DNA from: a virus
Taxonomy: Duplodnaviria > Heunggongvirae > Uroviricota > Caudoviricetes
DNA length: 19,784 nucleotides
Reading direction: 5' to 3' (one strand)
Virus record (IMG/VR): IMGVR_UViG_2690316049_000007
Coordinates: 1 to 19,784 of that record
Part shown: one piece after another, positions 1 through 19,784 of the stretch
Numbering within the stretch: the stretch's first letter is position 1
How the letters are laid out: each line of letters starts with the position of its first letter
Position numbers and translations under genes: made by a program
The notes under the pieces: generated by a model
What the model was told of the DNA's origin: nothing
What the model saw: the letters and a program-made list of their open reading frames with translations, nothing else
Database searches by the model: none

Positions 1-477
1 TCATACCTCAATCTCTCTGACCGTTCCGCCTGCTTCTTTGAATTTTGCAATCAGGCTGTCAGCCTTATGCTCGAACTGACCATAACCAGCCCCCGGAAGT
101 GAAGCCCAGATATTGCTGCAACGGTCGATAGCCTGACGGATATCACCGCGATCAATCATCGGCAAAGCGCCACGCTCTTTAATCTGTTGCAATGCCACAG
201 CGTCCTGGCTTTTCGGAGAGAAGTCTTTCAGGCCAAGCTGCTTGCGGTAGGCATCCCACCAACGGGAAAGAAGCTGGTAACGTCCGGCTGCTGTTGATTT
301 GAGTTTTGGGTTTAGCGTGACAAGTTTGCGAGGGTGATCGGAGTAATCAGTGAATAGCTCTCCGCCAACAATGACGTCATAACCATGATTTCTTGTTTTC
401 TGACGTCCGTTATCAGTTCCCTCTGACCACGCCAGCATATCGAGGAACGCCTTACGTTGATTATTGATTTCCACCAT
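1..477 (-). CDS. R: Phage endolysin, lambda R-type lytic transglycosylase (158 aa)
   Basis: Complete minus-strand ORF. Translation ([27 protein letters not shown]...GGTVREIEV) matches lambda R as I recall it nearly residue for residue. ATG at 477-475, stop at 3-1. Confidence 0.9.
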
Positions 478-784
478 CTTCTACTCCGGCTTTTTTAGCA
501 GCGAAGCGTTTGATAAGCGAACCAATCGAGTCAGTACCGATGTAGCCGATGAACACGCTCGTTATATAAGCGAGATTGCTACTTAGTCCGGCGAAGTCGA
601 GAAGGTCACGAATGAACCAGGCGATAATGGCGCACATCGTTGCGTCGATTACTGTTTTTGTAAACGCACCGCCATTATATCTGCCGCGAAGGTACGCCAT
701 TGCAAACGCAAGGATTGCCCCGATGCCTTGTTCCTTTGCCGCGAGAATGGCGGCTAACAGGTCATGTTTTTCTGGCATCTTCAT
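461..784 (-). CDS. S: Class I holin, lambda S-type (107 aa) with Met1-Lys2-Met3 dual-start motif
   Basis: Translation [32 protein letters not shown]... matches lambda S as recalled. ATGs at 784-782 and 778-776 give the holin/antiholin dual start. The 3' end overlaps the R start. Confidence 0.9.
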
Positions 785-1028
785 GTCTTACCCCCAATAA
801 GGGGATTTGCTCTATTTAATTAGGAATAAGGTCTATTACTGATAGAACAAATCCAGGCTACTGTGTTTAGTAATCAGATTTGTTCGTGACCGATATGCAC
901 GGGCAAAACGGCAGGAGGTTGTTAGCGCGACTTCCTGCCACCCGCTTTCACGAGGTCATGTGTAGAAGGCCGCAGCGTAACTATCACCGATGAATTCATG
1001 ATAGCCAGTGGCTACGACTCAGTTTGGA

Positions 1029-1155
1029 TTGTGGCGGCCGGAATCGAACCGGCTTCCATCGGTGCGCTGCCGATTGCAGTACGCGCGGCGGTCAGCTACA
1101 TGACTAGTATTTTCACTGTCGCCTATCTGCTAGCTCGCCATTGAGCTTCACCACA
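1029..1155 (-). ncRNA. tRNA-like element, non-canonical (T-arm, anticodon-like arm and acceptor/D-arm-like 5' part separated by about 57 nt)
   Basis: Minus strand reads ...ATCGG-CAGCGCA-CCGAT-GGAA-GCCGG-TTCGATT-CCGGC-CGCCACA-A. This gives a canonical T-arm with TTCGATT loop and a 5-bp stem with 7-nt loop before it. A 5' TGTGGTG (1155-1149) can pair with CGCCACA with one G-U, followed by a D-arm-like GCTC-AATGGC-GAGC. The total is about 127 nt, with no encoded CCA and a loop that has A at position 33 and C at 37, so it is not a standard tRNA. Confidence 0.35.
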
Positions 1156-1220
1156 ACGATAAGAGCACTCGGTGCATTTAAGCCAAGCCCCATAAGGGAG
1201 AATGCTCTTACCTGTTGTGC

Positions 1221-1249
1221 AAACAAAAAAAGCCCACAGGAGGTGGGCT
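1221..1249 (-). terminator. Rho-independent terminator, tR'-like, downstream of the late promoter
   Basis: Minus strand AGCCCAC-CTCCT-GTGGGCT followed by TTTTTTTGTTT: 7-bp GC-rich stem, 5-nt loop, U-run. Confidence 0.6.
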
Positions 1250-1290
1250 TGTGATGGTTGCTGAATGCAAAAGCAGCAGCATATGTGAAT

Positions 1291-1320
1291 ATTATGGCTA
1301 AATGGCTAATTGCATGTCAA
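1291..1320 (-). promoter_or_regulatory. Candidate late promoter pR' (-35 TTGACA, 18-bp spacer, -10 CATAAT) overlapping the 3' end of Q
   Basis: Minus strand TTGACA (1320-1315), 18 nt, CATAAT (1296-1291). Sits at the Q stop and about 60 nt upstream of the tR'-like terminator, the expected position for the Q-modified late promoter. Confidence 0.45.
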
Positions 1321-1816
1321 GGCTTTTAACAGCAAGATGCTTAACTTTCTCAACACGTTTACGCATTTTGAAAGCATTTTGCATTGGTTGGTACAAAACA
1401 AATAATGACGCTTTCAGGATGTCGTCAATTTCGTTTCTACAGGTTGCCAGTGAAGGTTTTCTCCATCCCTCGCCACCACGTCCACACATCTTGCGTGGCT
1501 TTGCAGTCGCGTGATAGTAGGATGCAATTGCTCGCTTAGATGAACCATGAGCGTAGTAGCTGAGGAGGATGCCAAAGGCTTTCTTGTCAATGTACATGAC
1601 GGAATCAACGACCTGAGAAATCAACATTCCATCATCATCATTACACATTGGCCTTGTCATAACTCTTCCCGGCTCTACGCTCTCCATGAACTTCGCTATT
1701 ACGCTGCTCATGCGCTTTTCCAGACGACCTGAATAAACCCATGCGCCCCACAGTTCAAGCCAGCCATTCAGCCACTCGTGCTGCTCTTTGGTGAGGTTTA
1801 GTTCTCTTATGCCCAC
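1298..1816 (-). CDS. Q: Late-gene antitermination protein Q (phage 82/21, QuuD-like family), 172 aa, GTG start
   Basis: Position between nin region and lysis genes. Motifs ELWGAW ... CNDDDGML ... LLSYYAHG resemble the Q/QuuD family as recalled (ERWGAW, ICDDDAM, LLVDYYVVG). GTG at 1816 preceded by GGGAGAAGG. Confidence 0.8.
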
Positions 1817-2478
1817 GCGCCTTCTCCCTGTACCTGAATCAATGTGAGGTTTCCGCAGAACACTGCGCCGGTATCGATATACATCTGGTTGGAAAACTTG
1901 AGTGGTTTCACTGCTGGCGTATGACCAAAGATGAACGTGTCCGCGCCTTTGATTTCTTTCACGATCCCGTCTTGTGAGTTGCTGATTCGTTCGCGGTTCC
2001 AGATTACCTGCTGATGATCAACTGGCTTTCCAAACTCGTATTTATCACAAGGATAATCGGCGTGGCAGATGACATATTTTTTACCTTTGCTCACCAGTTC
2101 GATGATTAACGGAAGTTCACCTGCTTTATGGGCAAGAGCTTTAGCCAGAATTTCTTTGTCGTAATCGAGATTAAAGAACCAGCCACCGCCATTAAGCAGC
2201 CAGTGATTGACGTTTCCATGCTCTGATAAGCCATCAATCATCATTTGCTCATGGTTTCCACGTACAGCTCTGAACCAGGGGAATGTGATTAATTCCAGGC
2301 ATTCGACGTTCTCTGTACCGCGATCAACCAAATCGCCCACCGAGATAAGCAGGTCTTTTTTGGTGTCGAATCCTATCGTCTCCAGTTTTTTCATCAGGTT
2401 CGTGTAGCATCCGTGCAGATCGCCAACTACCCAAATATTTCGGTATTTGCTGCCATCAATTCTTTCGTAATAGCGCAT
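1807..2478 (-). CDS. ninI: Ser/Thr protein phosphatase (lambda PPase, NinI/orf221 homolog)
   Basis: Translation from [25 protein letters not shown]... with GDLVDRG and GNHE metallophosphatase motifs matches lambda phosphatase as recalled. Start placed at ATG 2478 (GGAG upstream) rather than the longer ORF start at 2553. Confidence 0.9.
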
Positions 2479-2662
2479 CTCTTTCACTCCATCCGCGATG
2501 AACCATGAGAACGTCGTTGACGATGGCGTGCATTTTCCCGTCTTTATCATCAACGTATTTTCTGACCGTACCGCGACTACATTTCAGTCTGCGTGCTACT
2601 TCTGTCTGATTTCCGTATGCTTCAACGAGCATGTCTGGAATGGTTTTTACTGAGAACGTCAT
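2456..2662 (-). CDS. ninH: NinH (lambda orf68 homolog), 68 aa
   Basis: Size and position match lambda NinH. ATGA overlap with ninG stop at 2662-2659. Confidence 0.8.
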
Positions 2663-3270
2663 GCGGCCTCACTTCTGCTATTTCGCAGGTCTTTGAGTTT
2701 CTGTTGGTACTCTGCCTTGATCGCCTTGCACTCTTCGATAGTCCAGCGATGGCGGTTATGGTTTGATTCGATTTCGTCTACTGCTTCCTGCCCGATGCGG
2801 CTAATCAGTTCGACGCGATACGGAACGAGATTTCCGCTTTTGTGCTGGTTGCACACCACGCATTGCTTGTGAATATTGCGTTCATCAAATCGGAGTTGAG
2901 GTGCCGCAGCAGTTGTCCGGTAATGCCCGGCATCCCACTGAGCAGACGTGAGCGTTCCGCACGAGATACATGGTAAGTCGCGGTCTCTTTCTCTGATGAA
3001 GGCGTTTACGGCTTGTTGGGCTTGTTTAATCCAGTAACTGCGGGGCTTTAAGGCGAGTTTTCGAATCTTAAGTTTATCTTTCTGTTTCTGCTCCTCTCGT
3101 CGTCGTTTCTTCTCTGCTGCCTTTTCCGCTTTTTCGCGTTCTTTGCTTCGTCGTTCGAGTGCTATCTTGGTTCCACACTCTGGAGAGCACCACCACTGAT
3201 TAGCGAATGCAGGGTGAAACCATTCCCGACATTCTTCGTTTTTACATCGTCTTCGCGCTAGTTTGGCCAT
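2659..3270 (-). CDS. ninG: NinG / Rap recombination-associated endonuclease (203 aa)
   Basis: Cys-rich N-terminus ([10 protein letters not shown]...CSPECG), basic coiled segment and Cys/His-rich C-terminus, size about 204 aa, position between ninF and ninH as in lambda. Confidence 0.85.
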
Positions 3271-3439
3271 CGTCTTCTTCCTCGTACATTGAACTATTCG
3301 GATCGCTCATCAGTTCTGCGCAGCAGTGCTCACACACGTGAACTTCCAGCACATGCAGCTTCTGACCGCAGTTAGCGCACGTTAAAGCTCGCTCGACGCT
3401 TTCTTTCTGGTATTGAAGGGATTGGGATGGGCTAAGCAT
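3242..3439 (-). CDS. ninF: NinF-like small Cys-rich protein (65 aa)
   Basis: [46 protein letters not shown]... matches lambda NinF as recalled. Overlaps the ninG start. Confidence 0.8.
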
Positions 3440-3815
3440 TATTGGCGTCCTGCATCATGAGAAAGACAATCATGGCGGCACGGAGTGGATTGTCATATGC
3501 GACACCAACATTCGGTCCGGCATCATCAAACAAGTCCCTTGCGTTGTCTGTAGCGCACGGCATTGAGGGATTGTCTAAAATTATGCTGATGTTGTTTTCA
3601 GTGATAATCGGCCATGCGTCTGCTGGGTTTGCGCATGGGTTAAAGGATCCGCGCTCAACCTCTACTTCAACTGCGTCTCCGTTTACAATGTCTCCCTCAA
3701 ATGAGATAAACACCATCGCGCCATTCTCACCTTCTTTGTAATCCGGTGATCCGTTATGAATGGCTTCGAATACCGCCACGTTAATTTCAAAATCACTTAA
3801 CTGTGAATAATCCAT
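3432..3815 (-). CDS. Hypothetical nin-region protein (about 127 aa; ORF extends to 3857 with a GTG)
   Basis: Long minus-strand ORF in gene-dense nin region. Most plausible start is ATG 3815 (MDYSQLSDF...) with GAGG 8 nt upstream. Acidic protein, no motif recognised. Confidence 0.6.
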   Translation of the reverse strand: MDYSQLSDFEINVAVFEAIHNGSPDYKEGENGAMVFISFEGDIVNGDAVEVEVERGSFNPCANPADAWPIITENNISIILDNPSMPCATDNARDLFDDAGPNVGVAYDNPLRAAMIVFLMMQDANNA

Positions 3816-3960
3816 TGTCATTTCCTCGCACGATGTCTTAGCCACCGGATATCCCACAGGTGAGCCGTGTAGTTGAAGGTTTTTACGTCAGATTCTTTTG
3901 GGATTGGCTTTGGTTTATTTCTGGAGCGTTTCGTTGGAAGGTATTTGCAGTTTTCGCAGA

Positions 3961-4135
3961 TTATGTCGGTAATACTTCGTCGCTGTCTCGCCACACGTCC
4001 TCCTTTTCCTGCGGTAGTGGTAACACCCCTGTTGGTGTTCTTTCACACCGGAGACACCATCGATTCCAGTAAGGTTGTCCTGGTCGAAAGCGATCGTCTT
4101 CCTTTCGCTCTCCACATCGATAACAGTGCTTCATG
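3961..4135 (-). CDS. Small zinc-ribbon protein at the NinE position (57 aa)
   Basis: ATG 4135-4133 overlaps the methyltransferase stop (ATGA). [32 protein letters not shown] carries two CxxC pairs. A competing overlapping frame (3915-4115) exists. Confidence 0.45.
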
Positions 4136-4721
4136 CGATCACCATTTTGCATGGTTTAATCGCCATGCCTGGAGCCAGTTCAAAATCGGAGTCGCACTGA
4201 TTTCCCCACATATCCCACCCGGTCACTTTGTCGCGGCTAAATAACTCACAGCGCGGCACGTCGCCAAGCAACTTAGCTAACATGTCTCTTACGATCGGTG
4301 GTTTTGCACTGTGCTCCATTCTCGGTGCGGTAAAGTGCTGGCATATTGAAGCGTCCATTCTCTCAGGTAACCGCCCTCGAACGGCAAACAAGCAATCCTC
4401 GCTATTTGCCCGGGTCATATGCCCCATTCCGATCGCACTGTTGCCTTTGTGCTTATTGGTTTTGTGCCAAGTAAAGCCTTTCATAGTCATCAACCTGAAT
4501 CCCCACGCCTCAATTACCTTTAGCGCTTCGGCTGGCTGTGTCGGCACCCACCACATCGCTAACAAGCAAGATTCTGGATCCGCTAAATCCCATACTGGCA
4601 GTCGGCAAATGTCCTGAACATTCATAACATCGTATTTATGTCCAGCACCGCGATTGCCATCGTTGGCTTTGTCGCGATATTGCCAAGGCGGATCTGCGTA
4701 AATAAGTTGGTATTTGTTCAT
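4131..4721 (-). CDS. DNA N6-adenine methyltransferase, MT-A70 family (DPPW motif), 196 aa
   Basis: [15 protein letters not shown]... shows the DPPW catalytic motif near the N-terminus, typical of MT-A70-like orphan phage methyltransferases. ATGA overlap with ninB stop. Confidence 0.85.
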
Positions 4722-5158
4722 TCAGTTTTATCTCCCCATCTCGCTTTCCACTCCAGAGCCAGTCGCGCTTCGTCTGACCACTTAACGCCACGCTCTGTAC
4801 CGAATGCCTGTATAAGCTCTAATAGCTCCGCAAATTCGCCTACACGCATCCTGCTGGTTGACTGGCCTATTACCACAAAGCCATTCCCGGCAAGGTTAGG
4901 AACAACATCCTGCTGCTTTAATGCTGCGGTAAACACACACTTCCAGCTTTCTGCATCCAGCCAGCGACCATGCCATTCAACCTGACGAGAGACGTCACCT
5001 AAGCAGGCCCATAGCTTCCTGTTTTGGTCTAAGCTGCGGTTGCGTTCCTGAATGGTTACTACGATTGGTTTGGTTGGGTCTGGAAGAATTTGCTGTACCG
5101 CGTGAATAGCGTTTTGCTGATGTGCTGGAGATCGAATTTCAAAGGTTAGTTTTTTCAT
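4718..5158 (-). CDS. ninB: NinB (recombination mediator, lambda orf146 homolog)
   Basis: From MKKLTFEIRSPAHQQNAIHAVQQILPDPTKPIVVTIQERNRSLDQNRKLWACLGDVS... matches lambda NinB as recalled. Start at ATG 5158 with GGAGAGGGAAG upstream; the ORF-track start at 5176 is probably too long. Confidence 0.9.
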   Translation of the reverse strand: MKKLTFEIRSPAHQQNAIHAVQQILPDPTKPIVVTIQERNRSLDQNRKLWACLGDVSRQVEWHGRWLDAESWKCVFTAALKQQDVVPNLAGNGFVVIGQSTSRMRVGEFAELLELIQAFGTERGVKWSDEARLALEWKARWGDKTE

Positions 5159-5173
5159 GACTTCCCTCTCCCC

Positions 5174-5206
5174 CAAATAAAAAGGCCTGCGATTACCAGC
5201 AGGCCT
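5174..5206 (-). terminator. Rho-independent terminator between helicase and ninB (tR2-like position)
   Basis: Minus strand AGGCCTGC-TGGTAATC-GCAGGCCT followed by TTTTTATTT: 8-bp stem. Confidence 0.5.
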
Positions 5207-5234
5207 GTTATTAGCTCAGTGATGTAGATGGTCA

Positions 5235-7700
5235 TCAGAATCCTCCTTTCTTCTTGGACTGCGGTTCCTCGCGTTCACGGCGGCGCATTTCAGCAGACTG
5301 TTGGTCTGTGTCATAAATAGCGCCATTTGCCTGAATGCAATACACCGTGCCGGTATTGCCATGACGATTGAGACGAAGGATTAGTTCGGTTTCACCAGGT
5401 GGAACACTGTCATCAAAAGCACCTTCACGATGGATCCCCACCCAATAATCGCAATCCTGTTCAATCTGCCCTGTATCTCGTGAGTCACTTGGTAATGGGC
5501 GTTTATTGGTTCGGCTTTCCAGTGCGCGGTTAAGCTGCGTCAGAAGCACAACAACGCAATCAAGCTCTTTGGCAAGGTTCTTCAGTCCTTTGGTGATCAT
5601 GCCGTAAGCAAGGTCGTTGCGATCGGCCTTCTCAGCGGTCATTAGTGTCAGGTAATCGACCAGAATCATGCCAACACATCCTTTTTCTCGCTTGATTCGA
5701 CGGCTTTCGCTGACGATTTGAGCCAGAGATAATCCCGGCGTGTCGTCGATGTAAAGCATGTCGATTTCACTCAAGCGATTAGCTGTTTCGATCGCCCTGT
5801 TGAAGTCACCATCGTAATCACCCTGATAGCCGTCATCAGCGTCATTTGTCGCCGGAAGGTAAAAAATATTCGGGTTAACACCTGACTTCTGTCCTACCAG
5901 TTTTTCCAGTATCTGGTCACCGGGCATTTCAAGGCTGAACATCAGAGCGGGCTTTTTCTCATGCACTGCGCAGTTGATTGCCATCTGGCTGTATAGCGTG
6001 GTGTTGTGGGTTAGAATGTATCCGTCAGTTGCATACAAATGTCTCTCGTGGGATACCATGATGCAAATGCACTCTTCACGTCCAATATACTCAACCGACG
6101 TGATAACAGGCGCACTTGTTTTGATGCGTTTTGCAGTGAATTTTTGCTTCAGGCGTGGAGATTTTATGTGTGATAGAACCTCATCAGGCAACCTGATTGC
6201 GCAAATATGGGCATCCATACCTTTGCGCATTTCTCCCTTATAACTGAATTTCGGCTCCTGTTTGGTTGTCATACGACACACGCCACCAAGAGAATGCACC
6301 AGCCGCTTTACACCATCTGACAGGAACTTGCTTGCCGAGCTAAAGCGCAGGGCATTATTTCCTTCAACCCAACCATCGGTTTCAAGTAATCCGCATAGAA
6401 CATCAATACGAGTTTGCTTATCAGCAGAAAAAATAATATCCGGGATAATTTTAATCTCTGACATCCGGCCGTAGATACCAAGCCGTTGCATAACCCGCGT
6501 AAGAGATAATTTGCGGCTAAACTTGTGAGATAGGGAGTAATCGCAGCCAGAAACATGCCTGACTTCAATATCGTCACCCACTTCAGATCTTACTCGCTCA
6601 ATGATGTATGGTTCCGTCATGCTGATTCGTGGCGTACCTGCAAGATTTCCATCACCAAGTAACGCACCTAACAGCCATGGGCTAATCCCTAAATCAACAG
6701 GCAATCCGAAGTCACCGCTAATACCAGGAACATGAATGCGGCTTTGATAGCGAACGCATTCCATCATGTCCCGTAGGCGGCAGGTGTCTACAACATCAAC
6801 GCCACCGGTAATACGGTTACTATGAATTTCCCACAAATGATCATCCGCGCAATCAACGGTTCTTCCGTCAGAGAACGTAACTCGGTAAATATCTCGCTCC
6901 CCTTGAGGAAAAACTCCAGACACGAATGATGGTTGTCCATCCACTGATGCTAGGGAATCTCCAACACATACGTCACGAAATGTTGTCCATGAACCATCAG
7001 CAAGCAAAATGCGTGAATTAAGCGGTTGCGCTTTCCCCATCTTAGGGCGAGCGCCAATGACAAACAGAGATCCTTTCACCAGACCTTTCGGTGACAGCAT
7101 CCTGTCCAGCGATGGGATCCCTGTGCTCATTCCTCGTTGTTCGCCTGACGGGTCAAATCGCTTCTCAAGGTCGCTAACCCAGTCTTCCATGACCTCGCCA
7201 AATGAGCGAAGGCCGCGACGCGATCCGGTTTTTGCATGGTCTGTCAGTTGCGTGAAAATCGCCTGAATAGCTTCGTACTTCTGCGTTGCAGTCATTCCGT
7301 TGCGGGAATAGAGCAATTCCGTCGCTTCAGTCATGCGGTTGATGGCGTAGCGTTCCATTGCGGTTTCACGAACCTGCATTGCATAGGCAACGATGTTTGC
7401 TGCGCTTGGCGTGTTCTTTGCGATCTCAGCGATATAAGCAAAACCGCCAACAGACGCCGTTAACGATTTGCGATCCAGTTCATCGAAAAGCGTCAGGCCA
7501 TCTACTGGCTTTTGCTCCCGGTGCATTCTGGTTATTTCTTCGAAAAGGATTTTGTGTGGTCGGCTGTAAAATGAATCAGGCTTCAGCATCGCCAGAACTT
7601 TCTGGACGCGCTCACTGCTGTCATCATCCAGAAGCAATCCACCAATCACCGCCTGCTCTGCCTCGATGCTATGGGGCGGCGCATAAAAATTATCGGTCAT
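5235..7700 (-). CDS. Replicative DNA helicase, DnaB family (P22 gene 12-like), interrupted in-frame by an intein; precursor about 821 aa
   Basis: N-terminal PPHSIEAEQAVIGGLLLD, Walker A GARPKMGK then TTLYSQ, Walker B ILVDYLTLM, and LTQLNR...DSRDTGQIEQDCD are DnaB motifs. Walker A is split by 343 extra residues. Start placed at ATG 7700 (GAGGGTG upstream); the ORF track uses GTG 7715. Confidence 0.9.
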   Translation of the reverse strand: MTDNFYAPPHSIEAEQAVIGGLLLDDDSSERVQKVLAMLKPDSFYSRPHKILFEEITRMHREQKPVDGLTLFDELDRKSLTASVGGFAYIAEIAKNTPSAANIVAYAMQVRETAMERYAINRMTEATELLYSRNGMTATQKYEAIQAIFTQLTDHAKTGSRRGLRSFGEVMEDWVSDLEKRFDPSGEQRGMSTGIPSLDRMLSPKGLVKGSLFVIGARPKMGKAQPLNSRILLADGSWTTFRDVCVGDSLASVDGQPSFVSGVFPQGERDIYRVTFSDGRTVDCADDHLWEIHSNRITGGVDVVDTCRLRDMMECVRYQSRIHVPGISGDFGLPVDLGISPWLLGALLGDGNLAGTPRISMTEPYIIERVRSEVGDDIEVRHVSGCDYSLSHKFSRKLSLTRVMQRLGIYGRMSEIKIIPDIIFSADKQTRIDVLCGLLETDGWVEGNNALRFSSASKFLSDGVKRLVHSLGGVCRMTTKQEPKFSYKGEMRKGMDAHICAIRLPDEVLSHIKSPRLKQKFTAKRIKTSAPVITSVEYIGREECICIMVSHERHLYATDGYILTHNTTLYSQMAINCAVHEKKPALMFSLEMPGDQILEKLVGQKSGVNPNIFYLPATNDADDGYQGDYDGDFNRAIETANRLSEIDMLYIDDTPGLSLAQIVSESRRIKREKGCVGMILVDYLTLMTAEKADRNDLAYGMITKGLKNLAKELDCVVVLLTQLNRALESRTNKRPLPSDSRDTGQIEQDCDYWVGIHREGAFDDSVPPGETELILRLNRHGNTGTVYCIQANGAIYDTDQQSAEMRRREREEPQSKKKGGF
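6003..7031 (-). mobile_element. Intein (343 codons) in the helicase P-loop, with LAGLIDADG homing-endonuclease domain
   Basis: Insert lies between GARPKMGK (K codon 7034-7032) and TTLYSQ (T codon 6002-6000). It ends with LTHN before +1 Thr. Two LAGLIDADG-type motifs: LLGALLGDGNL (6674-6642) and VLCGLLETDGW (6401-6369). Block B-like DDHLW and block F-like EECICIMV are present. Confidence 0.8.
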
Positions 7701-14607: not shown

Positions 14608-15087
14608 ATGAAAGTCTGCTCAAGATGCCATCAACAGAAGGAAGAAAGGGACTTTCAAATCAGAAGAGCATCCAGAGATGGATTAACTGCCGCTTGCCGG
14701 GCTTGCCTGGCTGAATACGACAAAGAACGCGCTGGATTGCCACATCGAGTATCAGCAAGGAGAGAATATCAATCATCGGAACGCGGAAGAGAACGGTGTA
14801 ACGCAGCCAAAAAGCGGTTCATTCAGAGCAACCCATGGAAAAGAAAAGCCCACATCATTGTGGGTAATTTTTTGCGCGACGGTAAGCTAATCCGACCACC
14901 ACAATGTGAGTGCTGCGGATCAGAATGTAAACCACAGGCGCACCACTGCGACTACAGCAAACCAACCGATGTGATGTGGCTCTGCAAGTCATGTCATGTC
15001 GAGTGGCACAAACATAACAAACCTATCTACCCAGACGAGGAACCAGTAACTCTCCCCTTCCCTCGTCACGCTATTCACGCAATTTAA
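14608..15087 (+). CDS. HNH-like zinc-finger protein (putative HNH endonuclease), 159 aa
   Basis: AGGAG RBS. N-terminal CxxC...CxxC, C-terminal CECCGSECKPQAHHCDYSKPTDVMWLCKSCHVEWH, which fits the CxxC...HH...CxxCH HNH architecture. Confidence 0.65.
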   Translation: MKVCSRCHQQKEERDFQIRRASRDGLTAACRACLAEYDKERAGLPHRVSARREYQSSERGRERCNAAKKRFIQSNPWKRKAHIIVGNFLRDGKLIRPPQCECCGSECKPQAHHCDYSKPTDVMWLCKSCHVEWHKHNKPIYPDEEPVTLPFPRHAIHAI

Positions 15088-15095
15088 GGACTTAC

Positions 15096-15644
15096 ATGAA
15101 TCACTTAATGGTTGACCTTGAAACAATGGGCAACGGGCCATATGCGCCAGTTATTTCTATTGGTGCGGTATTCTTTGACCCGAATACCGGAGAAACAGGA
15201 GAAGAGTTCTCGGTAAATATCTCGCTTGAGTCATCAATGCGATATCGGGCGCGTCCTGACGCTTCAACGATTTTATGGTGGATGGAACAGAGTGAAGAAG
15301 CCAGAAAATCGCTAACCAGCAACACTCAAGAGCTTTCAACGGCTCTTTCATGGTTATCTGAATTCATCATAAAGAACGCTAACCACAAATTCGTTCAGGT
15401 TTGGGGGAATGGAGCATCATTTGACTGCGTTATTCTCCGAAACAGTTATTCACTGACAGGGCAGCCAGTTCCGTGGCAGTGGTGGAATGACCGCGACGTA
15501 AGAACAATCGTCGAACTTGGGAAGGTAATAGGATTCGACCCTAAGCGAGATATGCCATTCAAAGGAACTCGCCACAACGCGCTTGATGATGCCATTCACC
15601 AAGCCAAATACGTTTCAGCGATCTGGAAAAAGTTAGCTAAATAA
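15096..15644 (+). CDS. DEDDh-family 3'-5' exonuclease (DnaQ-like), 182 aa
   Basis: MVDLETMG (Exo I motif), GNGASFDCVIL (Exo II-like), TRHNALDDAIHQA (Exo III with His), typical of phage 3'-5' exonucleases. Confidence 0.85.
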   Translation: MNHLMVDLETMGNGPYAPVISIGAVFFDPNTGETGEEFSVNISLESSMRYRARPDASTILWWMEQSEEARKSLTSNTQELSTALSWLSEFIIKNANHKFVQVWGNGASFDCVILRNSYSLTGQPVPWQWWNDRDVRTIVELGKVIGFDPKRDMPFKGTRHNALDDAIHQAKYVSAIWKKLAK

Positions 15645-15660
15645 TCAACAGGAGAAAACC

Positions 15661-15957
15661 ATGCCAGCGCCTCTATATGGTGCGGACGACCCGCGCCGCT
15701 GTTCCGGCAATTCCATATCGGAGGTGCTGGAAAATATCAAGAATAATCTCGACGCGTTTCTTGCTCTGCCACCGGAAACAAAAGAAGAACGGAAGTACCG
15801 ACGCGATATACAACTCGCAGAAAAACAGGAAAAAGACCGAATAAACGAAACATCAATCCGACCATTCCGCAAATCCATATATACCCACTTCCCTGAATAT
15901 ATCGACCCGCGCCTGCGTAATTACCGCTCACGCTATGGCGCTATCAGTAATGACTGA
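15661..15957 (+). CDS. Hypothetical protein (98 aa)
   Basis: ORF with AGGAGA RBS. No recognised motif. Confidence 0.6.
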
Positions 15958-15967
15958 GGAATTTACC

Positions 15968-16135
15968 ATGAGAGGACTTGCATACAATCCCGGCATTCTT
16001 CCGGCAGAAATGATTATTCGCCAACGCGTAAAGCCAATGCCATCGAGAGAGGAATTGCTTAAAAGGAAGAGTTTCGGTTCTGTTAATGACAACAAATATC
16101 TGAATGCGATGTGGCGTAAAGGAGTCAAGCAGTGA
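15968..16135 (+). CDS. Small hypothetical protein (55 aa)
   Basis: ATG 15968 with GAGGAA RBS. Stop overlaps the GTG of the next gene. Confidence 0.4.
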
Positions 16136-16569
16136 GCAAGATTGATTATCAAAAGCTTCGTGAAATCGCTGAAAAAACAAAAATTGCTGGTGAAGCACCT
16201 GTAATGCCTTTCGATCAGCGAATTAATGCGCTTAACGATTTTATGAAGCACTTTTCGCCAGATATCGCGCTGGCACTGCTGGATGAACGGGAAAGGAACC
16301 AGCAATACATCAAACTCCGCGATCAGGAGAACGAGGAAATTGCGCTAACGGTAGGGAAACTGCGTGTTGAGCTGGAAGCCGCAGAGAAGCGCATTGCTGA
16401 GCTGCAGTTGCGGGAGGTTGTGCTTCCGCAATGCTATAGCATGTTGCATCGCGTCGATTTTGACGAGCCTTACCACACTGAAATGGTTTACAGGCAGCAT
16501 CAGGTTCTTGAGGCACTGCACAACGCTGGAATAAACGTCACCGAAGCAGGTAAAGGAGAGGCATCATGA
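16132..16569 (+). CDS. Ead/Ea22-like family protein (145 aa), GTG start
   Basis: GTG with AAGGAG RBS. N-terminal [17 protein letters not shown]... and central coiled region resemble the Ead/Ea22-like proteins of P22-like phage early-left regions as recalled. Confidence 0.65.
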
Positions 16570-17120
16570 GCACTATTCCCAAAGAACGTCTGGAACAATT
16601 AGCATCTGGAAACGCATGGTATTGCGTTCAAGATGACGAAGCGGCTGAGCTGGCGCGTATCGCGCTGGCATCGCTGGAAGCAAAACCAGTTGCTTATATT
16701 TTCAAACATCCGGCCGGGAAATTATTCTGGGCTTTGACGGATGAAAGCAATAAAGATCAATCGGACGTTATTCCTGTTTATGCTGCCTCACCTGCACCAA
16801 TAGCGTCGGAGGCCATTGAAAACGCTATTGAATACATCCGCAGTATCGCTTTTCACATCGATGAAGACGATTACCACGGCAAACATATTGCGTATTTCAT
16901 GCGACAAGCATTGGCCTGGCTGGAAGGGCATTCATGCAGTGATGACAGTCAGGGCAAATCCGATAATTCACCATTGCCGCGCTACCAGGTGATCGAATTA
17001 ACAATGCTGGTTAAACAATTGGTCAGCCAACTGAAAAAAGCAAAACCTGATTGCAAATTACCTGATAGGGCGATGGATTATCTTTTGCGAAACGAACTGG
17101 TAAGTGCGGAGGGGGTTTAA
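16566..17120 (+). CDS. Hypothetical protein (184 aa)
   Basis: ATGA-coupled to upstream gene, AAGGAGAGG RBS. No recognised motif. Confidence 0.7.
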   Translation: MSTIPKERLEQLASGNAWYCVQDDEAAELARIALASLEAKPVAYIFKHPAGKLFWALTDESNKDQSDVIPVYAASPAPIASEAIENAIEYIRSIAFHIDEDDYHGKHIAYFMRQALAWLEGHSCSDDSQGKSDNSPLPRYQVIELTMLVKQLVSQLKKAKPDCKLPDRAMDYLLRNELVSAEGV

Positions 17121-17122
17121 CG

Positions 17123-17701
17123 ATGACCATTTCTACAAAAAAGCCTCTTTATGCTGAGGTTCACAATGTTCCTGATGATTATGAGTTCACTGACGAGGAA
17201 CTAAACAGAATTATTGCAGGTGATATGTTCACTCCTCGTCAGGACGCAATAATGGCACGGGAGATACAGAAACTCCGCGCCGCCATGCTTCATGGTGCAG
17301 AACCTGTAAAACAGACTTACAAGTTGCCTCCCCTGCCATCCAGCGAAGTAAACGAAGCGGCATGGAGATTACACAACATGCTTACTGAATGCATCCCTCT
17401 AAATGGTCATCAGTTCAACAATCTGAAGGGTTGGTTCTATGAGGCGTTAAAGGTCGCAATGCGCAACTATCCGGTAAATCCGGATGGTTGGATAAGCTGT
17501 AGTGAGCGAATGCCGGATACCAAAACAGCCGTTCTTGTTGCCAAGGAGTTTGATAGGAAAGGTGACTGGCGAATGAAATGGGCGACTTACATCCCGGGGC
17601 ATCCTGACGCTAATGATGGGTGGATCATTCCTGGGGCGTCGTGGAAACCGTCACACTGGATGCCGCTACCAGAACCGCCGCAGGAGGTTAACCGTGGCTA
17701 A
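17123..17701 (+). CDS. DUF551-like domain protein (192 aa)
   Basis: C-terminal ...GWIIPGASWKPSHWMPLPEPP fits the HWMPLPEPP-type signature I associate with the phage DUF551 domain. GGAGGGGG RBS. Confidence 0.7.
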   Translation: MTISTKKPLYAEVHNVPDDYEFTDEELNRIIAGDMFTPRQDAIMAREIQKLRAAMLHGAEPVKQTYKLPPLPSSEVNEAAWRLHNMLTECIPLNGHQFNNLKGWFYEALKVAMRNYPVNPDGWISCSERMPDTKTAVLVAKEFDRKGDWRMKWATYIPGHPDANDGWIIPGASWKPSHWMPLPEPPQEVNRG

Positions 17702-17733
17702 CCTGCAACTTGCCGTTAAAGGTGAATAACAAT

Positions 17734-17759
17734 CCTCGCACTCGCGGGGATTTCTTTTA
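17734..17759 (+). terminator. Candidate rho-independent terminator
   Basis: CCTCGC-ACTC-GCGGGG (one G-U) followed by ATTTCTTTTAT. Confidence 0.4.
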
Positions 17760-17800
17760 TCTGAACTCGCTACGGCGGGTTTTGTTTTATGGAGATGATT

Positions 17801-18100
17801 ATGGCCTGTTCAACATTCAACCATCTAACGTTACAGAAATACCAGACAGACCCTGAAGATTTATGCTCACTGTGTGGCGGAAATCATGGTAAAGCCGCCA
17901 TGATCGAATGTAAGGACAAAATCCACATTTGCCTTAATTGCGTTGATGTCCTCGTTGATATCAAAAATGAGAGAGAAGATAAAAAGCGTAGCGAGGCTGT
18001 TCGCGCCTTAGATTCATGGATGAGGGATGGATATAGTGCCGCGCAAATTTATGACTTAGCAATATCAAAAGGCGAAATACCAGGAGTGCGTATCGAATAA
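17801..18100 (+). CDS. Hypothetical Cys-rich protein (about 100 aa)
   Basis: ATG 17801 with GGAG 6 nt upstream. CSLCGG...CLNC suggests a zinc ribbon. Confidence 0.6.
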   Translation: MACSTFNHLTLQKYQTDPEDLCSLCGGNHGKAAMIECKDKIHICLNCVDVLVDIKNEREDKKRSEAVRALDSWMRDGYSAAQIYDLAISKGEIPGVRIE

Positions 18101-18142
18101 GACGTAACCAACATTCGAATTGAAGAACTGAAAGAACACCAA

Positions 18143-18165
18143 GCCGCCTGATGGCGGTTTTTTAT
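18143..18165 (+). terminator. Rho-independent terminator
   Basis: CCGCC-TGAT-GGCGG followed by TTTTTTTATTT. Confidence 0.65.
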
Positions 18166-18208
18166 TTCCTGATTTGCAGGTTCGATTCCCTATTCGGAGA
18201 TAGCACTC

Positions 18209-18409
18209 ATGCAACACGAACTACAACCTGATTCACTGGTTGATTTGAAATTCATCATGGCTGATACTGGCTTCGGTAAAACCTTCATCTACGACCGGAT
18301 TAAGTCCGGCGACCTGCCTAAAGCCAAAGTTATCCACGGGCGAGCAAGATGGTTATATCGTGACCATTGTGAATTCAAAAATAAGCTCTTAAGCCGCGCC
18401 AATGGGTAA
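18209..18409 (+). CDS. AlpA/Xis-like small HTH DNA-binding protein (putative excisionase or regulator), 66 aa
   Basis: LKFIMADTGFGKTFIYDRIKSGDLPKAKVIHGRARWLYRD fits the AlpA/excisionase HTH pattern. Lies at the distal end of the leftward operon where xis is expected. Confidence 0.7.
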   Translation: MQHELQPDSLVDLKFIMADTGFGKTFIYDRIKSGDLPKAKVIHGRARWLYRDHCEFKNKLLSRANG

Positions 18410-18885
18410 AATAGCGGGTAAAATATTTCTCACATCTAAAAAACACCATTCCAATCAATCCCCTGCCTCGTCAAGTAGATGTCTGCAGGGGACACCAGAT
18501 ACCCTTCAAACGAAATCTACCTTCACCCCGTAAAAGATGGGTTTGGCAGCACACTTGCCTTATATCTACTCATTTTTACTGCAACAGGTTGAAATCTCAG
18601 CACTGTCAGAAAGCGCTGATGACTAAACAGCCCTGGGCCGGGCGATGTAACCATCACACAGAATCCTGATAGCGAAATATGGCGTGACTCGATACTTCAC
18701 TCCGCAATGCATTCCTTGATGAATTCGCAGGACCGTGATACACGGGACAGGTCACTGAATGACGACAATGTCCTGGAAATCAGCGAACCGCGCATCTGAA
18801 GTACATTTGAGCGACTGTACCAGAACATGAATGAGGCGTTTGGATTAGGCGATTATTAGCAGGGCTAAGCATTTTACTATTATTA

Positions 18886-18929
18886 TTTTCCGGTTGAGGG
18901 ATATAGAGCTATCGACAACAACCGGAAAA
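18886..18929. repeat. Perfect 11-bp inverted repeat (TTTTCCGGTTG / CAACCGGAAAA) with 22-bp spacer, 10 bp downstream of the permease stop
   Basis: Arms 18886-18896 and 18919-18929 are exact reverse complements. No adjacent U-run on either strand. Confidence 0.6.
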
Positions 18930-18938
18930 AGTTTACGT

Positions 18939-19784
18939 CTATATTGCTGAAGGTACAGGCGTTTCCATAACTATTTGCTCGCGTTTTTTACTCAAGAAGA
19001 AAATGCCAAATAGCAACATCAGGCAGACAATACCCGAAATTGCGAAGAAAACTGTCTGGTAGCCTGCGTGGTCAAAGAGTATCCCAGTCGGCGTTGAAAG
19101 CAGCACAATCCCAAGCGAACTGGCAATTTGAAAACCAATCAGAAAGATCGTCGACGACAGGCGCTTATCAAAATTTGCCACGCTGTATTTGAAGACGGAT
19201 ATGACACAAAGTGGAACCTCAATAGCATGTAACAGCTTCACTAATGAAATAATCCAGGGGTTAACGAACAGCGCGCAGGAAAGGATACGCAACGCCATAA
19301 TCACAACACCGATAAGTAATGCATTTTTTGGCCCTACCCGATTCACAAAGAAAGGAATAATCGCCATGCATAGCGCTTCGAGTACCACCTGGAATGAGTT
19401 GAGATAACCATACAGGCGCGTTCCTACATCGTGTGATTCGAATAAACCTGCATAAAAGACAGGAAAAAGTTGTTGATCAAAAATGTTATAGAAAGACCAC
19501 GTCCCCACAATAAATATGACGAAAACCCAGAAGTTTCGATCCTTGAAAACTGCGATAAAATCCTCTTTTTTTACCCCTCCCGCATCCGCCGCTACGCACT
19601 GGTGATCCTTATCTTTAAAACACATGTTGATCATCATAAATACAGCGCCAAATAGCGAGACCAACCAGAAGTTGATATGGGGACTGATACTAAAAAATAT
19701 GCCGGCAAAGAACGCGCCAATAGCATAGCCAAAAGATCCCCAGGCGCGCGCTGTTCCATATTCGAAATGAAAATTTCGCGCCAT
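18939..19784 (-). CDS. LacY-family (oligosaccharide:H+ symporter) MFS permease, C-terminal 281 codons; 5' end lies beyond the window
   Basis: Hydrophobic multi-helix protein with FNIFDQQLFPVFY and GPKNALLIG segments paralleling LacY (YDVFDQQFANFF, GGKNALLLAG) as recalled, but divergent. ORF runs to the window edge. Confidence 0.85.
   Translation of the reverse strand: MARNFHFEYGTARAWGSFGYAIGAFFAGIFFSISPHINFWLVSLFGAVFMMINMCFKDKDHQCVAADAGGVKKEDFIAVFKDRNFWVFVIFIVGTWSFYNIFDQQLFPVFYAGLFESHDVGTRLYGYLNSFQVVLEALCMAIIPFFVNRVGPKNALLIGVVIMALRILSCALFVNPWIISLVKLLHAIEVPLCVISVFKYSVANFDKRLSSTIFLIGFQIASSLGIVLLSTPTGILFDHAGYQTVFFAISGIVCLMLLFGIFFLSKKREQIVMETPVPSAI

Follow-up and report, generated by a model that had tools for sequence, protein, structure and literature searches.

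A torI-terminated prophage edge beside cscB as the highly probable attR junction of a P22-like prophage in the 3' end of argW

The window analysed in this study, i.e. the whole 19,784-nucleotide stretch of the Caudoviricetes record IMGVR_UViG_2690316049_000007, closes with an arrangement that raises a question about the state of the prophage. An excisionase-like gene is followed by an interval without an integrase gene, and a permease gene comes next on the opposite strand. The initial annotation correctly described this layout: in the 529 bp that follow the Xis-like gene 18209-18409 the longest open reading frame (ORF) encodes 44 aa, and the convergent gene 18939-19784 (minus strand) encodes a permease of the LacY family (LacY_symp, PF01306, E = 8.6e-129, profile positions 132-412 of 413). 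It was measured there against the xis-int-att order of lambda and P22, from which two readings were drawn: either the integrase gene and the att site had been deleted, leaving an excision-defective prophage, or the integration module was situated elsewhere and the permease was cargo. Here we ask where the prophage ends and where its integrase gene is located.

TorI, the last gene of the prophage

The product of 18209-18409 was 100% identical to the TorI protein of E. coli K-12 and matched the PDB entry 1Z4H, 'Tor inhibition protein', over residues 1-66 (E = 6.6e-43), and the matches to the Pfam families AlpA and HTH_17 were weak and below the cut-off. In addition, torI is annotated by RefSeq in related genomes (H1-H20). 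The gene is torI, which encodes the excisionase of the prophage KplE1/CPS-53 and of the phages Sf6 and HK620; in KplE1, TorI is known to act as the recombination directionality factor (RDF) (PMC3509656). The features at this end of the early-left region are the following.

18141-18160, plus strand: terminator-like hairpin of the intrinsic type, AAGCCGCC-TGAT-GGCGGTTT, then a T-run
18209-18409, plus strand: torI, 66 aa; excisionase (recombination directionality factor), the last prophage gene

The hairpin is situated between the early-left gene 17789-18100 and torI, and the conserved recombination module that the window has in common with K-12 KplE1 starts at about position 18160. The gene preceding torI (17789-18100, plus strand) encodes a 103-aa protein with a CxxC...CxxC spacing, the match of which to a ClpX-type zinc finger was weak (E = 0.014, below the cut-off). 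The slot occupied by this gene is mosaic, a different gene, Eag, being found there in related prophages. When the window was scanned with Rfam, no family reached the gathering threshold, and near torI a sub-threshold chance match to STnc130 was recorded (23.5 bits against a cut-off of 55 bits).

The search of IMG/VR with a TorI alignment returned solely 100%-identical copies, which were of no use for covariation, and diverged torI/xis relatives were taken from a tblastn search of a phage collection. Many of the IMG/VR prophage predictions (L014-L093) end exactly 3 bp past the torI stop codon and have a locus length of 2701. Automated boundaries placed at this position cut off the attR core described below.

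The attR core and the junction with host DNA

ARAGORN detected no tRNA gene in the window. As the att core is a 15-nt fragment of a tRNA gene, an alignment was needed to locate it, and the core was found by aligning argW of a related genome to the window. This revealed the following elements downstream of torI.

18386-18497, plus strand: phage-derived part of attR (P arm and core), its start being the primer position of a 135-bp attR substrate
18404-18413 and 18416-18425, plus strand: two direct repeats GGGTAAAATA at the 3' end of torI; putative IntS arm-type sites
18459-18466, plus strand: left arm of an inverted repeat, TCCCCTGC, overlapping the IHF-consensus-like AATCAATCCCCTG
18483-18497, plus strand: attR core CTGCAGGGGACACCA, equal to argW nucleotides 61-75 (15/15); the duplicated crossover segment

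The core corresponds to the terminal 15 nt of argW, a tRNA-Arg(CCU) gene, and is located 73 bp past the torI stop codon. Its counterpart in K-12 is annotated as 'pawZ', a 15-bp pseudo-copy of argW. The duplicated core reported for KplE1 is 16 nt long, CTGCAGGGGACACCAT (PMC2951348). The identity extends over 15 bp in the window as compared to 16 bp in K-12, as G instead of T follows the core on the host side, and we found no evidence that the 15- versus 16-bp length of the core matters. The phage-side primer attR-IHF2 of the published 135-bp attR substrate, which served for the in vitro excision of KplE1 (PMC3509656, PMC2951348), matches positions 18386-18405 exactly.

Three comparisons bear on the position at which phage DNA gives way to host DNA. 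The segment 18386-18497 was 97% identical to the attP of Sf6 and HK620, and the free phages Sf6, HK620, N7, Kapi1, HK633, IME10 and others were 96-98% identical to the window over 18100-18497, with none of them matching further. A related prophage in another flank (H21) matched the window from position 1 to 18497 only. Finally, a synthetic empty site, in which yfdC-argW was joined directly to 18498-19100, was present without interruption and at 100% identity in many E. coli genomes, and 2238 of the 5426 complete E. coli genomes covered at least 80% of it. Taken together, the free phages, H21 and the empty site place the prophage/host junction at 18497/18498, and the match of the core to argW together with this junction implies that an att site is present inside 18410-18938. 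Comparison with prophage-free genomes, the approach that the initial annotation had recommended, thus defined the junction, as yfdC-argW and the sequence from 18498 onward form a single 100%-identical piece there. The same comparison contradicts the assertion that the prophage arm abuts the permease gene: 18497 is the last prophage position, and the permease stop codon is reached only after 441 bp of host DNA. The torI/attR module was detected in 1404 and the argW-intS junction in 1881 of the 5426 complete E. coli genomes.

The direct repeats at the end of torI probably represent IntS arm-type sites, as their pattern of conservation suggests. The motif GGGTAAAA has three matches in the window against 0.4 expected, and the arm-repeat motif also occurs, in both orientations, in the P' arm beside intS, for which a TAAA motif has been described at the P' sites (PMC2951348). 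We compared the P' arms of L003, L005, L011-L013, L094 and L095. In both Salmonella phage g341c (Xis 52% identical) and Erwinia phage phiEt88 (39%), the two arms switch together to GGGCATA, and such a joint change is the behaviour expected of integrase arm-type sites.

The inverted repeat noted earlier in this interval is real, although it is 8 and not 7 nt long (18459-18466/18485-18492): its right arm, GCAGGGGA, lies at 18485-18492 inside the tRNA-derived core, and 18 nt separate the arms. On its own, this repeat is not beyond chance. Perfect inverted repeats of at least 7 nt with a loop of 3-40 nt were found in 59% of the shuffles of the interval and those of at least 8 nt in 20%, and the 861-bp neighbourhood holds nine such pairs. 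As a DNA hairpin the repeat was somewhat more stable than the shuffled sequences (-9.2 kcal/mol, z = -2.8). At the same time, CCCCTGC was invariant in seven out of seven diverged attP sites, and the spacer between it and the core diverged. This spacer is 18 nt long in most attP sites and 24 nt in g341c, and the variable spacing argues against a strict dyad. We infer from this conservation that the left arm, CCCCTGC, may be a conserved protein-binding element of the P arm, for which IHF is the likeliest candidate. The CII site and P_I that are annotated in the HK620 record are not conserved in g341c or phiEt88.

Position of the integrase gene, the host flank and competing explanations

A tblastn search of the window with IntS gave a best E value of 13 and nothing in 18410-18938, and the six-frame Pfam scan of 18410-18938 at E ≤ 10 yielded no recombinase, the sole hit being DUF4942. 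The proposed search of this interval for a decayed integrase therefore came out empty. In the Sf6 and HK620 records the order of elements is xis (gp18/HkaC), attP core and int. In K-12, the KplE1/CPS-53 region reads argW, intS ... torI, pawZ, dsdC, and intS has been described as the first and torI as the last gene of KplE1 (PMC2951348, PMC3509656). The prophages that have the torI-cscB junction of the window (L001, L002, L008 and L009) all carry intS at the far end, beside the tRNA-Arg gene argW and yfdC (4/4). In the three intact relatives (L002, L008, L009) intS is about 40 kb away from torI. The fourth, L001 of strain 124, is a deleted remnant of about 12 kb in which intS has been kept, which indicates that prophages at the argW site do decay. 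According to the comparison with L002, the far end of the prophage is situated upstream of the window, at a distance of more than 20 kb from position 1, and it is there that this prophage would be expected to carry intS. The suggestion of an integration module elsewhere was thus sound, since intS stands beside argW in the relatives. When the whole window was searched against the complete E. coli genomes, the best coverage was 64% and none reached at least 80%, because the phage is mosaic.

Beyond the junction, the window contains the following host features.

18498-18938, no strand: host spacer between argW and cscB, 441 bp, contiguous with argW in prophage-free genomes
18668-18841, plus strand: relic of a DUF4942 gene, a decayed N-terminal fragment (PF13708, E = 2.4e-8, profile positions 5-62 of 190) with an in-frame stop
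18886-18929, minus strand: perfect 11-bp inverted repeat TTTTCCGGTTG / CAACCGGAAAA with a 22-nt loop, directly past the cscB stop codon
18939-19784, minus strand: cscB, sucrose:H+ symporter of the LacY family; truncated by the window end, with the C-terminal 281 of 415 codons present

The permease gene is the host chromosomal cscB of the cscRAKB regulon and not phage cargo, contrary to what had been proposed: in prophage-free genomes cscB adjoins argW with the same 441-bp spacer. Both the LacY_symp profile and the csc operon context identify it as CscB, an oligosaccharide:H+ symporter of the LacY type. The genes cscB and torI are convergent. In genomes with an identical junction, cscB is followed by cscK, cscA, cscR, a truncated dsdX and dsdA and by no integrase gene, so looking for an integrase or att repeats beyond 19784 leads in the wrong direction. 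The 11-bp inverted repeat may serve as the cscB terminator, judging from its position. The region of the DUF4942 fragment is a pseudogene in the RefSeq annotation of related genomes, and the relic may stem from an older island at the argW tRNA hotspot. In several prophage-bearing genomes cscB is a pseudogene with an internal stop (L002 2766-4013, L008 1667-2914, L009 45133-46380). It is intact in strain 124, the right junction of which is 100% identical to that of the window, and the 281 C-terminal codons present in the window are open.

We are therefore highly confident that the interval represents attR, the right-hand junction of a P22-like prophage (Lederbergvirus, of the Sf6/HK620 type) that has integrated in the 3' end of argW, presumably with int at its far end. 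The present analysis supplies the identity of the genes, the precise position of the junction, the empty site and the place of intS in relatives, and the mechanism of excision is taken from the literature. In the free phage, with the order xis(torI)-attP-int, the crossover site lies between both recombination genes, and integration at the 15-16-bp core parts xis and int to opposite ends of the prophage. IntS would then be encoded directly downstream of the restored argW, at attL, and torI becomes the terminal gene of the prophage, with 73 bp between it and the duplicated core at attR; from 18498 onward host DNA follows, first the 441-bp spacer with the decayed DUF4942 fragment and then cscB. 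Excision would be expected to proceed as in KplE1, with IntS made from its own promoter overlapping attL and with TorI, bound on the att arms, directing IntS (together with IHF) to recombine attL with attR. IntS, TorI and IHF bring about the excision of KplE1 both in vivo and in vitro, and the dependence of excision on IntS and TorI (and IHF) has been established experimentally with KplE1 and HK620 substrates (PMC2951348, PMC3509656). The transcription of int is uncoupled from that of the RDF gene, and the module is common to HK620, Sf6 and CUS-3 (PMC2951348, PMC3509656).

The idea that the leftward operon lost int and att from its end, so that the prophage became stranded and excision-defective, agrees with the absence of an int ORF after torI and of any ORF above 44 aa in 18410-18938, and related prophages at the argW site can indeed be internally deleted, as in L001. 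However, the attR core and the P arm with its repeats are intact and 97-100% identical to functional attP/attR sites, no integrase remnant was recovered by either the IntS tblastn (best E value 13) or the six-frame Pfam scan (only DUF4942), and xis-attP-int is the native order in free phages. An xis gene without an adjacent int is the usual arrangement in the family (PMC2951348, PMC3509656). Moreover, the 18497/18498 junction equals the empty site exactly, which means that nothing was deleted there. For the att site and the right prophage end the deletion is already refuted, and as an account of the locus as a whole we regard it as very improbable. The lambda/P22 expectation from which it arose is inapplicable to the Sf6/HK620 subgroup of P22-like phages.

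We give even less credence to a permease carried by the phage as cargo (a moron), with the true prophage end beyond it. P22-like phages often have accessory genes near int/att (oac, gtr, wzy-like), but in prophage-free genomes cscB and the same 441-bp spacer directly adjoin argW, cscK, cscA and cscR come next, the phage genomes stop at 18497, and csc is known as a chromosomal locus beside argW, at a hotspot of recombination and phage integration (PMC3032704, PMC11251922). A boundary at the following element, with torI outside the prophage as part of a separate remnant, appears just as hard to credit.

18174-18189, plus strand: 16-mer TTGCAGGTTCGATTCC, 16/16 identical to argW nucleotides 46-61 (5' strand of the T-stem and the T-loop)

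Such a boundary would accord with the CUS-3 record, where this 16-mer is labelled as the attL/attR core and where the record ends, and the repeat is without mismatch and exceeds the 15-nt core by 1 nt. Nevertheless, the free phages Sf6 and HK620 are contiguous from the 16-mer through torI and the core to int, and recombination at the 16-mer would fuse argW to the sequence upstream of torI, unlike the empty site observed. In the NU14 lysogen, torI is present after the end of the CUS-3 record and before dsdC, and KplE1 excision was demonstrated with the CTGCAGGGGACACCAT core (PMC2951348). Thus, an attR junction at 18497/18498 remains by far the best explanation of the locus.

The T-loop-like motif upstream of torI and the relation to known systems

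The 16-mer is located between the terminator-like hairpin 18141-18160 and the torI ribosome-binding site, and it is found upstream of torI/xis in K-12, Sf6, HK620 and CUS-3. As the core directly follows the 16-mer in the tRNA, the final 30 nt of argW are present here as a copy split in two, with torI and the P arm (293 bp) between the parts. The core of the 16-mer (18179-18189) together with the C at 18190 makes up the motif GTTCGATTCCC, which starts 29 nt upstream of the torI ATG. In g341c (Xis 52%) and phiEt88 (39%) GTTCGATTCCC is also situated exactly 29 nt upstream of the xis ATG, amid surroundings that are unalignable, and in Erwinia phage Midgardsormr38 (L011 1685-1714) it is tandemly duplicated. 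Among the relatives examined, the motif was absent from Klebsiella phage RCIP0114 and Erwinia phage EhrS49. This pattern of conservation indicates that the motif would be under selection and would not be a passive relic. It is possible, though on balance doubtful, that GTTCGATTCCC is a functional element so far undescribed.

Several roles can be envisaged for the motif from its sequence and position. It could act as an additional core-type ('B-like') site for IntS, as it resembles the B half-site of attB, or it could be the footprint of an ancestral attP that crossed the T-loop and received the xis-P-arm segment as an insertion. A further candidate is an element that acts at the RNA level close to the Shine-Dalgarno sequence. 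The motif as a putative TorI operator appears weakened: GTTCG is a repeated motif of the P' arm as well, yet in phiEt88 the P'-arm repeat differs and GTTCGATTCCC is kept. The torI promoter and its regulation were uncharacterised as of 2010 (PMC2951348).

The GenBank record of CUS-3 (CP000711) labels the 16-mer TTGCAGGTTCGATTCC as the attL/attR core (L004 2575-2590, L006 1-16) and ends at it, 19 bp before torI, leaving out torI and the true core. In NU14, a CUS-3-type lysogen (L010 2476-2711), torI follows 19 bp after the end of that record, and the true core and dsdC come next.

The closest known counterpart of the locus is KplE1 (CPS-53). The TorI proteins are identical, and hardly any difference is found between about 18160 and 18497, a segment that comprises the 16-mer, the arm repeats, CCCCTGC and the core. 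The target tRNA gene is the same, and intS and torI are situated at opposite ends. KplE1, however, is reduced to a 10.2-kb remnant that lacks lytic genes and has dsdC as its neighbour, whereas the prophage of the window has a full P22-like early region and lysis genes, a cscB flank and a core identity of 15 nt. The resemblance to Sf6 and HK620 (Lederbergvirus) consists of 97-98% DNA identity over 18100-18497 and of an attP between xis and int. In these free genomes int comes after attP, whereas in the window host DNA comes after a recombined attR; the genes of the early region are mosaic, and 64% was the highest coverage of the window by any genome. With this group and KplE1 the window has in common the terminal torI, the argW-derived core CTGCAGGGGACACCA(T) and the exact junction with the empty site.

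With lambda and P22 the family of the window shares a tyrosine integrase, a small winged-helix RDF and the position of xis, distal in the early-left operon. In those phages att lies beyond int and xis and int are adjacent in the prophage, whereas in this family attP splits them, and neither an int ORF nor a remnant of one was found after torI. In addition, int of KplE1-type prophages has its own promoter, which overlaps attL, so that transcription of int and of the RDF gene is uncoupled (PMC2951348). The host side corresponds to the variable island argW-dsdCXA/csc, with cscB-cscK-cscA-cscR, a truncated dsdX and dsdA (PMC3032704, PMC11251922). Nothing in it is notably different, and the DUF4942 relic is part of the host region.

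The architecture is ordinary and has already been published. The analysis places the cscB-side boundary of a very common E. coli prophage site to the base, at 18497/18498, and shows that a search for the duplicated 3' end of argW leads directly to the att core. For annotation, this implies that an Xis-like gene at a prophage edge without an integrase gene is the normal, excision-competent layout in Sf6/HK620/KplE1-type prophages and not a sign of decay. The T-loop-like motif before torI is the sole remaining point with some research value: if it were a core-type site, the integrase could control torI expression or loop the torI gene.
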